A stretch of 60,440 nt of DNA, filler included, from Dugesia japonica (taxonomy: Eukaryota): the NCBI GenBank assembly GCA_001938525.1. It is 5 parts of 5 records of this genome, joined end to end, with 100 filler letters (N's around TTAATTAATTAA, not from the genome) between each part and the next. Parts side by side here need not be neighbours in the genome. Positions count along the whole stretch, not along the records: positions 46,652 to 60,440 come from MQRL01395225.1; 4 more parts are not named here. One strand, given 5' to 3'. Of the stretch, positions 46,652 to 54,350 are shown piece by piece. How positions within the stretch are numbered: the stretch's first letter is position 1; the number at the start of each line of letters is the position of its first letter. A program made the translations under genes and the position numbers. Under the pieces are notes generated by a model. That model saw only the letters and a list, made by a program, of their open reading frames with translations, was not told the origin of the DNA and searched no databases.

Positions 46652-47507
46652 TTCTTAATATTTTCCCCAAGTTTGAATAAGCTATTAATCCAATTTGATT
46701 GGCTTTTGTTATTACACATTGCCAAGTATGAATTTCTTTTTCTAACTTATCATCATCAAAATTTATAAGTTTTTTATTATAAGTTTTATTATAACTTTTA
46801 TCATTAACAAATGTTAAAGTTTTTGTATTAGAATTATTATTATCATGTTTTAGTTTAAGAGATTTTATAAATTTTCCTTCAAATTCATTTTCAAATTCAG
46901 GTTCATAATTATCAATTAGTGGTCTTGGTTCTGGTTCTGGTACTTTATGTTGGGGTTCAGGTTCCGATTCCGATTCCGATTCCGATTCCGATTCCGATTC
47001 CGATGAAGATTCGGGTTCGGGTTCTGGTACTGGTACTGGTACTGGTACTGGTATTGGTTTTTGAGGTCTTGATCTTGATTTTGGTTTTGCTATTGGTATT
47101 GGTTCCGATTCCGATTCCGATTCCGATTCCGATTCCGATTCGGGTTCGGGTTCGGGTTCTGGTACTGGTACTTTATGTTGGGGTACTGGTACTTTATGTT
47201 CAAGTTCTTTAGGTATAAATATTTTATTAATCTTACCATTACTCTGATGTTTAATAAGTTTATTTTGAGCTTCATTTTTAGGAATCCAAATAGCTTTTCC
47301 TGGTACAGCTTTCTTTTTATTAAAATGATCAAGAGCTACATTTACTCTACATCTATTTTCTAACATATAATCTACAACTTCTTTAAAACTTGTTGTTGTT
47401 TCTAATATAGGAATAAAGTAATCTTTATCATCACTAAATTTAACAATAAGATCTAAATTCGATTTAACATTTTCTAAATTATTACTAAGCATCAATAGGT
47501 GTTGCAT
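46652..47507 (-). CDS. Unknown protein with two (VP)n(EP)n(ES)n blocks; 3'-truncated by the contig end
   Basis: Open frame with in-frame hexamer repeats GAATCG/GTACCA; same strand as the pPolB cluster. Confidence 0.7.
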
Positions 47508-47673
47508 TATGTCAATATGCTATTATGTCAATATGCTATTATGTCAATATGCTATTTTCTAAATATATTGATTTAATCATGTGGTTATTTTTTAGGGGGT
47601 GGCTTTGACATTAAATCTCAAGTGCGATTAATCGCATTTACATCCTAGGAATTAATAAAGGAGGGTTCGCCTC

Positions 47674-49089
47674 CTAATTTTTAGTGAAATATTTACCCTT
47701 ATATTTATCATAAATTTTATTAGAAATTAACCCCATCATCTTTAATTTTTTACAANTTTTTTTAATATCATTTTCCAAATTATCATGTCCAGATTTTACA
47801 GCTGAAATTAGTAATGTTAATTTTTCAAATAAATTTATTGGCCCCATCTTAATAGAACTTCCTGTTTGAGGATTTACTATTTTTTTTAATTTATTACAAT
47901 ATTCATTATTCTTAGGTGGTTTTATAACATTATCTAAATATAGATTTATATCCTTTATACTTTCATCATCTACACCCATGAAAATAAAATTTCCTGTAAT
48001 TAAATCAACAAAATCTCGTGAATAATTATAATATTTTTCATTAATTGAGAAATATTTTTTACCATTATTCTCAAAGAAAATTATTTTCACTTTTGTATTT
48101 TTAAATGTTGCAGCGTAAAATTTTTTACCAGAAGGTTTTGCTAAATACGTATCAATAAGAGGTGTTATTGTTGGTGTTAATGTTTTAAAATTAACTTTTA
48201 AACCTTCTGGTTTAAATACATTTGTTTTTTTATAATTTAAATATTTAAGAATTTGTTCATCTATTTCTGATGTTGATGGTTGTGGTTCTGGTTCTTCTGA
48301 TTTAGGATATGATTGGGATTCTGATTCATATTGGGATTCTGATTCATATTGGGATTCTGATTTAGGATCAAATATTTCTGATTTTACATCTGCTTCAGTT
48401 TCCTCTGCATCATCTCGTATTTTTTCTATTGGAGCAGATTTTGGTTCTTTTCCTTCTTTGATTTTTTCTTTTATCTTTCTTTTAGGTTTTTCTTTTAAAA
48501 TCTCTACTTTTCTAAATTTATTTTTTAATTCATTAACATAAGTACAATTAGTAGGAATTGGAGATATAAATTTATTAACATAAATCTCAACTTCTTGGGG
48601 TGTTTCTCTTCCATCTTTATTTCCTAAAATCAATCTAAAAATTCCATCGGTATAAGGAATAATCTCAGATTTAAATAAGAAATATCTATCTCCTTCTTCT
48701 TCAAATAAATGAATTTTATTATGTTTTAAAGTTATCTCCATAAAACTTTTTATTTTATCTGGTGCTGTAACATTTAATCTTGAAAATGATGGAATAATTG
48801 TTTGAGTTAATTTACCTGCGGCATTAACATTTTCAATTGAGTAATCTGGAATAAATGGATTGACTTTTTCATTTAAAAAGAATTTTGTTAAATCTCTACT
48901 TTCTATTAAATTTGGTTTCAATGAAATTTTATTAATTGCAGAAATTGTAGGTTGTTGCATGAAGGCTAATTGACTTTGTAATTCTCTAGATTGAATAATA
49001 TTTCCACAGAAAAAATCATTAAAATTTTCTTGAGATTTTACTAAAGCTCTTAAGTCTCTAATTCTTTCTTCAACTTCTTTTGTATTCAT
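47674..49089 (-). CDS. Polinton-associated 471-aa protein
   Basis: Open frame; C-terminal NLFEKLTLLISAVKSGHDNLENDI...L..MGLI resembles the L.LL...AGN...NEI..I...L...G.I tail seen in invertebrate Polinton proteins. Confidence 0.75.
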   Translation of the reverse strand: MNTKEVEERIRDLRALVKSQENFNDFFCGNIIQSRELQSQLAFMQQPTISAINKISLKPNLIESRDLTKFFLNEKVNPFIPDYSIENVNAAGKLTQTIIPSFSRLNVTAPDKIKSFMEITLKHNKIHLFEEEGDRYFLFKSEIIPYTDGIFRLILGNKDGRETPQEVEIYVNKFISPIPTNCTYVNELKNKFRKVEILKEKPKRKIKEKIKEGKEPKSAPIEKIRDDAEETEADVKSEIFDPKSESQYESESQYESESQSYPKSEEPEPQPSTSEIDEQILKYLNYKKTNVFKPEGLKVNFKTLTPTITPLIDTYLAKPSGKKFYAATFKNTKVKIIFFENNGKKYFSINEKYYNYSRDFVDLITGNFIFMGVDDESIKDINLYLDNVIKPPKNNEYCNKLKKIVNPQTGSSIKMGPINLFEKLTLLISAVKSGHDNLENDIKKXCKKLKMMGLISNKIYDKYKGKYFTKN

Positions 49090-49101
49090 TACTGGCTTTT
49101 T

Positions 49102-49593
49102 TTATATAGTAGTTTTATAAGGATTTAAATAGAGTCCATCACCATGTTTAATTATTTCGATTCCATCTTTAAAGTTTTTAGTTAAAGTTTTAAAGTCATC
49201 ATCAACCTCGCTGGTACTTAGAATATTTTTAAAATATTTATGAATTGCGGTTCCTTGATAAGGATTGAGATAAATACCAGATCCTTTGGCAACGAAGTTG
49301 CCGTTGGTGGTTTCACTTAATTTATCTATCTCCTTTTGTTTTAGGATTGCATCTTTAGAACTAGCTACGGTACTCGCAATTCCAGAAGCAATACCCGCAG
49401 TTCCTGCCAATCCGGCAATTATTGCGGGAATAGCGGCTAGGAATGCAAAACCGCCATTATGTTGTTTTTGTTTAATAAGTTCATCTTTTACTTTTTTACT
49501 GATATAATAATTTTTACCATTAATTTTTACAGATTTACATTTTTTACTATTTACAATTTTTTCTAACTCTTCCTCACTCGGATTTTCATTCAT
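49102..49593 (-). CDS. Adenovirus pX/Mu-like core or membrane-active protein
   Basis: Basic N-terminus, then NGG|FAFLAAIPAIIAGLAGTAGIASGIA; twice-repeated GxG(I/L)YLNPY; first ATG at 49593. Confidence 0.75.
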   Translation of the reverse strand: MNENPSEEELEKIVNSKKCKSVKINGKNYYISKKVKDELIKQKQHNGGFAFLAAIPAIIAGLAGTAGIASGIASTVASSKDAILKQKEIDKLSETTNGNFVAKGSGIYLNPYQGTAIHKYFKNILSTSEVDDDFKTLTKNFKDGIEIIKHGDGLYLNPYKTTI

Positions 49594-53465: not shown

Positions 53466-53539
53466 TTTATAGAAGAGTAAATTACATCATACGATTATAT
53501 TTTATTTTTGGGTGATTTTTCCCTATTTTTATTATTTTT

Positions 53540-54150
53540 TTTTATTGATTTTTTTTTATTGATTTTTTACTGATTTTTTATTGATTTTTTATTGATTATT
53601 TTAATATTATAGCTTGAGATTTGAGATTTAAACCTAGAGATTTATGATTTTACACTAAGATTTTAGGGTGAGATTTTTTACAATTATTTGGATTTTATTT
53701 TAGATTTTATTTTGTATTTTATTTGGATTTTATTTATGGATTTTGGTTTTTAATGGTTAATTAGGTTTTAGGTTTTAGGCTTAGGGCTTAGAGCTTAGAG
53801 CTTAGGGTTTTACATCGAATCCCGAATCTGACATTTTACATTTTATACTCGAGATCTTATTTTTATATACTCAAGATCGAATCCCGAATCTGACATTTTA
53901 CATTTTATACTTGAATCCCAAATCTGACATTTTACACTCGAATCCTGAATCTAACATTTTACATTTTACACTTGAATCCCAAATCTGACATTTTACACTC
54001 GAATCTCAAATCCACCATTTTATACTAACATTTTATAGTGAGATCAAGTTTTACATTTTACATTTTACATTTTACATTTTACATTTTACATTTTACATTT
54101 TAGATTTTACATTTTACATTTTACATTTTACATTTTACATTTTACACTCC
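53540..54150. repeat. Composite short-period repeat array upstream of pPolB
   Basis: TTGATTTTT and GGATTTTATT units, YTTAGRG x6, CGAATCY units and (TTTTACA) about x14. Confidence 0.9.
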
Positions 54151-54263
54151 TAACCATCACAGATATTTGGCTTCAACCCATTTTTTAATATTTTAGGTTT
54201 TTTTCTCTAAATTTCTAGGCTTTTCACTTAAATCCTTAACATTTAACATTCCAGGCTATATAT

Positions 54264-54350
54264 AGTATATGTATATTTACTTTTCGAAGTAAGTTTGGCC
54301 TGAGCATCGCGAAGGCTAGGCTTGCTTCGAAAAGTAAATATACATATACT
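54264..54350 (+). repeat. 38-bp inverted repeat with 11-nt structured loop
   Basis: Arms 54264-54301 and 54313-54350: 34 Watson-Crick + 4 G-T pairs. Confidence 0.95.

Follow-up and report, generated by a model that had tools for sequence, protein, structure and literature searches.

The closest described relatives of the element considered here are the Alpha-PolB adintoviruses and the group-2 (pPolB2) Polintons (PMC8502044; PMC10748475). Polintons measure 13-25 kb (PMC8097293; PMC10748475), and their pPolB2 class carries an HNH domain (PMC10748475). The polymerases of Alpha adintoviruses and bidnaviruses are close to each other (PMC8502044), and the catalytic dyad of the vOTU domain is retained in polintons but lost in bidnaviruses and adenoviruses (PMC11071308). 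In vertebrate Mavericks, which span 12.7-24.6 kb, pPolB and integrase lie in separate modules (PMC8097293). Halocafeteria virophages and one subtype of Polinton-like viruses (PLVs) possess palindromes within their terminal repeats, adjoining target duplications, and the Halocafeteria elements described with them include ones with rve integrases; fold-back priming is proposed there, but untested (bioRxiv 10.64898/2026.07.28.741278).

Here we describe a block of genes at positions 46652-54350 of a 60,440-nt stretch of Dugesia japonica DNA. This whole stretch is called the window, and all coordinates refer to it; the block forms the left edge of its last contig (46652-60440). We see about an even chance that the block represents 7.7 kb on the pPolB side of a divergent Polinton of the Alpha-adintovirus type, which was inserted recently and whose tip is an 87-bp palindrome reaching to 54350. 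The genes of this element for capsid, ATPase, protease and integrase most likely lay past the contig end. The element is already of a known kind, namely a young truncated Polinton, and palindromic tips are known from the Halocafeteria virophages and PLVs.

With the Alpha-PolB adintoviruses and pPolB2 Polintons the block shares an OTU-bearing pPolB of the pfam03175 type with an HNH insert, tight intronless packing, integration among host transposons and what we take to be a small pX-like protein. It differs from them in that its polymerase is only about 30% identical to the nearest relatives, two of its open reading frames (ORF471 and ORF284) lack a full-length homologue, the HNH insert is without the usual histidine, and no integrase, ATPase, capsid or protease gene is visible in the truncated fragment. 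As in vertebrate Mavericks (PMC8097293), pPolB is situated near one end, the candidate tip of which starts with AGT, points inward and is followed by accessory genes, the Maverick integrase and capsid genes being in another module. However, the block has no ATPase gene directly after pPolB, and its candidate tip reads AGTA inside a palindrome, not (AGT)2 or (AG)3. The palindrome at an apparent element-host boundary and the proposed fold-back priming have their counterpart in the Halocafeteria seosinensis virophages and PLV subtype 4 (bioRxiv 10.64898/2026.07.28.741278), but the palindrome of the block is imperfect and 87 bp long (52 nt in subtype 5), is seen at one end only, and is carried by an element whose pPolB is complete and whose host is apparently an animal. 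The AT-richness of the DNA and the kinds of transposons present would fit an invertebrate. With the Bidnaviridae and bidna-like viruses the block shares a related polymerase fold. In contrast to these, it appears to keep the vOTU catalytic residues, falls into a separate clade, has neighbours of the Polinton type and shows no NS1.

The palindrome and the end of the element

The palindrome, which was absent from the initial annotation, pairs its arms on the plus strand by 26 perfect pairs plus four G-T pairs. Folded as DNA it reaches a z-score of -10.6, none of 200 shuffled versions being as stable, and it is the only palindrome of this strength in the window. No second copy exists in these 60 kb, no exact match was found in viral contigs and no Rfam match at the gathering score. 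Each of the four mismatches in the stem is a G-T pair on the plus strand; this strand folds fully, while the minus strand has bubbles, and the chance of four transitions falling on one strand is 1 in 8. Read inward from 54350, the palindrome begins with AGT (AGTA), for which the chance is 0.018 if the edge is fixed and higher if it is flexible. Decayed host transposons start within about 300 bp past it, and no run of N interrupts the sequence from pPolB to this flank.

We regard the palindrome as the probable tip because of its AGT edge, the host debris beyond it and a similar palindrome in the same place in a relative. In this relative (L074), a palindrome of 131 bp precedes pPolB by 150 nt at a host-like boundary; the palindrome is bounded by AGTAGT and ACTACT and lacks a flanking duplication. 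In a second related locus (L038), a 159-bp palindrome is bounded by (AC)3A, a motif listed among Maverick ends (PMC8097293), and shares the apex GAGCnnnGCGA with the palindrome of the block.

The end had been called atypical in the initial annotation. This is correct in so far as it is unlike the AGTAG ends of the other local Polintons (27890, 31775 and 46470), which are present as annotated and have no copy in the block. It is nevertheless likely to be a palindrome starting with AGT, and palindromic tips have been described before (bioRxiv 10.64898/2026.07.28.741278). The AGTAG at 46470 was rejected as the opposite end, since it lies beyond the linker and shares only four bases with the palindrome; AGTAGT at 54837 and AGTAG at 54595 were likewise discarded, as they belong to the flank and are about as frequent as chance predicts.

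Judged by its family, such an element would start replication by terminal-protein priming through the N-terminal region of pPolB, the vOTU domain would cut off this N-terminal terminal protein, and pPolB would copy by strand displacement. The DNA with its AGT ends would be inserted by an rve integrase, the gene of which would lie in the missing half, and a short stretch of the target would be duplicated. From its geometry, the palindrome could fold back flush on the displaced single strand. The plus strand, which holds the 3' terminus at this end, is also the fully pairing strand, and its fold-back might either prime copying inward or rebuild the tip. The tip would then be restored without the pairing of two distant terminal repeats.

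The end region between pPolB and the palindrome has no significant match elsewhere in the window. It includes a short telomere-like tract of TTAGG/TTAGGG variants (53765-53810), the G-rich strand of which runs toward the palindrome. The pPolB element of L074 (5613-12920) has host-like DNA to its left and no integrase, ATPase or capsid match in 7.3 kb; its contig is filed under an archaeal genome. In total, 46 Polinton-type pPolB contigs (L032-L077) are filed in bacterial or archaeal genome bins, and the ones that were inspected have the appearance of eukaryotic or viral DNA placed in the wrong bin. A nested fold-back of about 1.7 kb lies upstream of a broken pPolB in L069 (428-2176).

The gene block and its polymerase

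Table 1. Features of the block and of the DNA next to it (positions in the window)
Feature	Position	Strand	Remarks
Assembly linker N44-TTAATTAATTAA-N44 (N44-12mer-N44)	46552-46651		four copies in the window, at 13048, 24129, 34618 and 46552; joins unrelated contigs and marks truncation
ORF284	47507-46652	-	at least 284 aa; runs off the contig end
ORF471	49089-47674	-	471 aa
ORF172	49620-49102	-	172 aa (163 aa from the second ATG, 49593)
pPolB	53465-49614	-	1283 aa
Non-coding end region	53466-54263		about 800 bp with several tandem repeat tracts (periods of 7 to 61 bp); probable terminal repeat region
Palindrome	54264-54350		87 bp, 38-nt arms; probable element tip
Flank	54351-60440		decayed host transposons and, near 57250-58050, the decayed capsid gene of another Polinton
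DNA-transposon-like end	near 54630		in the flank; presumed label
Gypsy-type gag/protease pieces	55230-57035		in the flank; presumed label

The block consists of four intronless ORFs, arranged head to tail on the minus strand across 6.8 kb (Table 1). The gaps given in the initial annotation, from pPolB to ORF284 20 nt, 12 nt and 166 nt, were confirmed; the first of them assumes that ORF172 starts at 49593, since its first ATG overlaps the pPolB stop. That the frames contain no internal stops holds for all called bases, but 158 N in pPolB (51029-51186; residues 761-813) and one N in ORF471 are unread. The pPolB frame is identical on both sides of the N gap, and the gap size matches the homologues. 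The adjoining linker supports the view that the contig ends at 46652, which is a fair reading. Host transposon debris lies on the same contig, and the integration proposed in the initial annotation is supported.

The two longest stop-free stretches of the window are pPolB (1237 called codons) and ORF471 (474), followed by one of 321 codons; the latter, at 12039-13047, reaches a contig end. Nonsense changes make up 6.4% of the possible substitutions in the 6438 called coding bases of the block. Under a neutral substitution model that ignores indels, the chance of zero stops is 0.13, 0.017 and 0.0003 at 0.5%, 1% and 2% divergence, respectively. Since the lack of stops is improbable at 1-2% neutral divergence, the copy appears to be young or under selection, in line with the youth proposed for it before.

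A 16-bp repeat is present in three copies, the last of which reaches the start of ORF284, and two small GC-rich hairpins directly follow the ORF471 stop (47600-47690). The intergenic hairpins have z-scores of -1.7 to -2.8 at two gaps and are missing at the third, and these weak structures were not taken as a sign of giant-virus-type transcription. Among the 24 rows listed for public sequencing runs, 11 contain part of 47760-51020, with a best word share of 0.26 and none reaching half; no RNA run is among the rows listed, and they were not used as evidence.

In Pfam, pPolB matches DNA_pol_B_2 (PF03175; E 2.6e-15), three C2H2 fingers (zf-C2H2) and, weakly, Endonuclease_7. With residues 230-1283 as query, 3834 candidates yielded 34 homologues of 21-35% identity. 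As the exonuclease and polymerase motifs are also in place, pPolB is a protein-primed family-B polymerase by Pfam, homologues and motifs. Searches for close relatives yielded none in viral contigs, and in metagenomes only a zinc-finger match. Ahead of the exonuclease, Cys289 and His381 occupy near-invariant columns. We read them, following PMC11071308, as the vOTU dyad, which means that the catalytic residues would be kept. The HNH insert retains its cysteines; it is probably nuclease-dead, because the histidine common to most homologues is absent.

The pPolB phylogeny proposed in the initial annotation was calculated as a quick LG+G4 tree of 47 rows, omitting three short proteins and three short ORFs of related loci, including no Beta-type enzyme and supported only by the Shimodaira-Hasegawa-like approximate likelihood ratio test (SH-aLRT). 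The polymerase sits on a branch of 1.21 with an Aphis protein and two unnamed proteins (SH-aLRT 96), and a wider set of eight rows adds enzymes from Uroleucon and Caenorhabditis (SH-aLRT 98), while bidna-like rows are found elsewhere; long branches in such a tree can mislead. Together with the lack of any tblastn match between the block and the other, fragmented Polinton genes of the window, the tree corroborates a Polinton/adintovirus-like lineage apart from the decayed local copies, which are indeed broken as annotated.

A structure predicted for residues 1-759 (predicted local distance difference test, pLDDT, 73.7) has phi29 polymerase as its best PDB match (E 2.9e-3) and OTU proteases as weak ones (E 0.2-0.3). 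In BFVD it gives 27 matches with E ≤ 0.001, first bidna-like polymerases and then adintovirus, MELD and adenovirus enzymes. These matches, together with the HNH insert, fit the Alpha class (PMC8502044) and the pPolB2 class (PMC10748475). On the strength of these comparisons, pPolB is taken to be an Alpha/pPolB2-type Polinton enzyme on a long branch.

ORF471 contains a domain of about 100 aa in two copies around an acidic linker (internal duplication by blastp, E 2e-8). This domain is alpha/beta, and neither Pfam nor PHROGs nor the related loci contain a match to it. No full-length homologue of ORF471 was found among 7230 candidates, among 1.84 billion representatives or in the Atlas, and a single-sequence structure model is unusable (pLDDT 34). 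Its last 50 residues, however, match a C-terminal Polinton profile built from ten related-locus C-termini with 22.5 bits. In comparison, 2000 shuffled versions scored no higher than 11.4, and the other frames of the window no higher than 8.2; with an earlier seven-sequence profile the values were 11.3 versus 7.8. The ten-sequence profile also matches proteins in L080, L081 and L084, loci with ATPase and protease. The C-terminus of ORF471 corresponds to a helical motif of a conserved, unnamed Polinton protein. The name GasderminX was rejected, since PMC8502044 defines it by a pX-like C-terminus, which ORF471 lacks.

The small protein ORF172 has a GGF plus hydrophobic stretch, which resembles one in the decayed Polinton near 29100, and two GxG[LI]YL motifs. 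The motif GxG[LIV][YF]L recurs in small proteins of seven Polinton loci (L036, L046, L052, L078, L080, L081 and L084). Homologues were not found among 362 candidates at E 10, PDB gave chance matches only, Pfam and PHROGs gave nothing significant, and a pairwise scan of 3245 frames of L001-L018 revealed no match to the pX-like region. ORF172 is likely a virion core protein, presumably a pX-like one. ORF284 is characterized by Pro/Glu/Ser repeats and has no usable match in Pfam, PHROGs, the Atlas or the related loci. Two of the three pPolB neighbours, ORF471 and ORF172, thus look like accessory genes of the Polinton virion module, their motifs being common to Polinton loci that bear capsid and integrase. 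This argues that the capsid genes lay past the contig break.

Absent genes and competing explanations

The initial annotation saw no integrase, ATPase, capsid or protease gene in the block. For integrase and ATPase this stands, as the profiles recover decayed copies at 28028-29026 and 31722-32120 and none on the contig of the block. The capsid and protease profiles have no match anywhere in the window and therefore no positive control, so that the absence of these genes was not sensitively tested. In 14 related loci with enough flank, we compared the span from 885 bp before to 2962 bp after pPolB. Neither integrase nor ATPase is present there in 6 of the 14. Three of these six have an integrase further away; one of them is L080, an element of 15.7 kb with inverted terminal repeats of 500 bp at its ends. 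The other three (L074, L084 and L088) have none on the stretch examined. Since six relatives look alike through this span and half of them do have an integrase further off, the absence of integrase and ATPase from the block carries little weight. The atypical integration route considered earlier is not positively supported: no more than about 3 kb are visible beyond pPolB, and integrase-bearing relatives are often without integrase there.

Several observations weigh against a divergent Alpha-type Polinton with a palindromic tip. The top structural matches of the N-terminal half of pPolB are bidnavirus-like polymerases, and 8 of the 14 relatives do have an integrase within the equivalent span. 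The contig, which cuts the element about 3 kb past pPolB, reveals neither a second end nor a target duplication, and it has no gene for an integrase or a capsid protein. The tip AGTA is unlike both the local AGTAG and the (AGT)2 or (AG)3 of PMC8097293, and TATAT stands on both sides of the palindrome, as for a self-contained insertion. A palindrome is present in the kilobase before pPolB in just 4 of 35 relatives, compared to 14 in 356 kb elsewhere, an approximately threefold enrichment that is confounded by non-coding content. One of these four (L008) is internal to its genome, and in L038 the host flank contains another palindrome (8025-8192) that is unrelated to the first. Finally, the palindromes in bioRxiv 10.64898/2026.07.28.741278 are mainly found on elements without pPolB.

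It is unlikely, but has to be taken seriously, that we are dealing with a truncated Polinton of the ordinary type, the true tip of which is missing or has escaped recognition. In this case the palindrome would be a tiny separate insertion (a host miniature inverted-repeat transposable element or a Polinton-derived mini-element) or a misassembly across tandem repeats. The TATAT flanks and the long palindromic host insertion beside the related element in L038 favour an insertion. However, no other copy of the palindrome occurs in 60 kb, the flanks are low-complexity TA, which makes a 5-bp match weak, and the palindrome starts with AGT at the expected tip position. A misjoin would be in keeping with the short-read artefacts of the assembly, for instance sequence duplicated around gaps, and with the tandem arrays between pPolB and the palindrome, but the sequence from pPolB to the flank is free of N gaps.

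Distinctly less probable is an integrase-less adinto-like virus with hairpin ends, inserted by host repair or by an integrase acting in trans. The visible 7.7 kb without integrase, the divergent lineage with a tip unlike that of the local Polintons and the three relatives without integrase on the stretch examined agree with this. Integrase-less relatives have been published, namely the MELD viruses of Hydra and Anelosimus (PMC8502044) and Ca_PLV1, which is integrated (PMC11296320). The Hydra and Anelosimus elements are, however, without an OTU domain, whereas the block appears to keep it. The AGT edge fits standard ends, and the missing half has ample room for an integrase. A bolder variant, namely a young animal Polinton-like lineage that combines a complete protein-priming pPolB and fold-back palindromic ends with the lack of an own integrase and another entry route to chromosomes, seems to us more doubtful still.

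Least of all do we expect a pPolB replicon that resembles bidnaviruses or plasmids and has no capsid genes, or a viral contig that is not integrated but was wrongly joined to host DNA. In favour of this are the top BFVD matches, which are bidnavirus-like polymerases, and the hairpin ends, a typical trait of single-stranded DNA viruses. On the other side, the tree groups pPolB with Polinton enzymes of aphids and Caenorhabditis, the Cys and His of the vOTU domain, which bidnaviruses lose, appear to be kept, the neighbours resemble Polinton virion-module genes, and no NS1, parvovirus-type capsid or HUH family is among the Pfam matches of the four ORFs.

Other Polintons of the window and implications

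The decayed Polinton ends at 27890 and 31775 are related and have the same AGTAGGTAGAT tip. A 31-bp tandem array (26440-27138) adjoins the first of them, and between 29030 and 32830 ATPase and pX-like genes occur in inverted copies. Two similar ORFs of 130-150 aa (23666-24172 and 45487-45891) lie on different contigs, each near a contig end, and have no PHROG match.

No published description of this element was found in a literature search that excluded Repbase, most subscription papers and supplements; a nearer relative may be among the supplementary genome maps of PMC8502044. Should the palindrome prove to be a separate insertion, the block is an ordinary truncated Polinton, and its interest is limited to a divergent polymerase and two orphan proteins. 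An integrase-less palindromic lineage, if true, would combine protein priming with hairpin priming. The release and priming of Polinton ends have been proposed, and no test is reported in the papers cited here. If the palindrome is indeed the tip of a Polinton of the Alpha-adintovirus type, for which the similar tips in two relatives (L074 and L038) add to the case, the range of palindromic ends would widen from the virophages and PLVs of protists to the Polintons of animals, and a short, defined end would become available for study.

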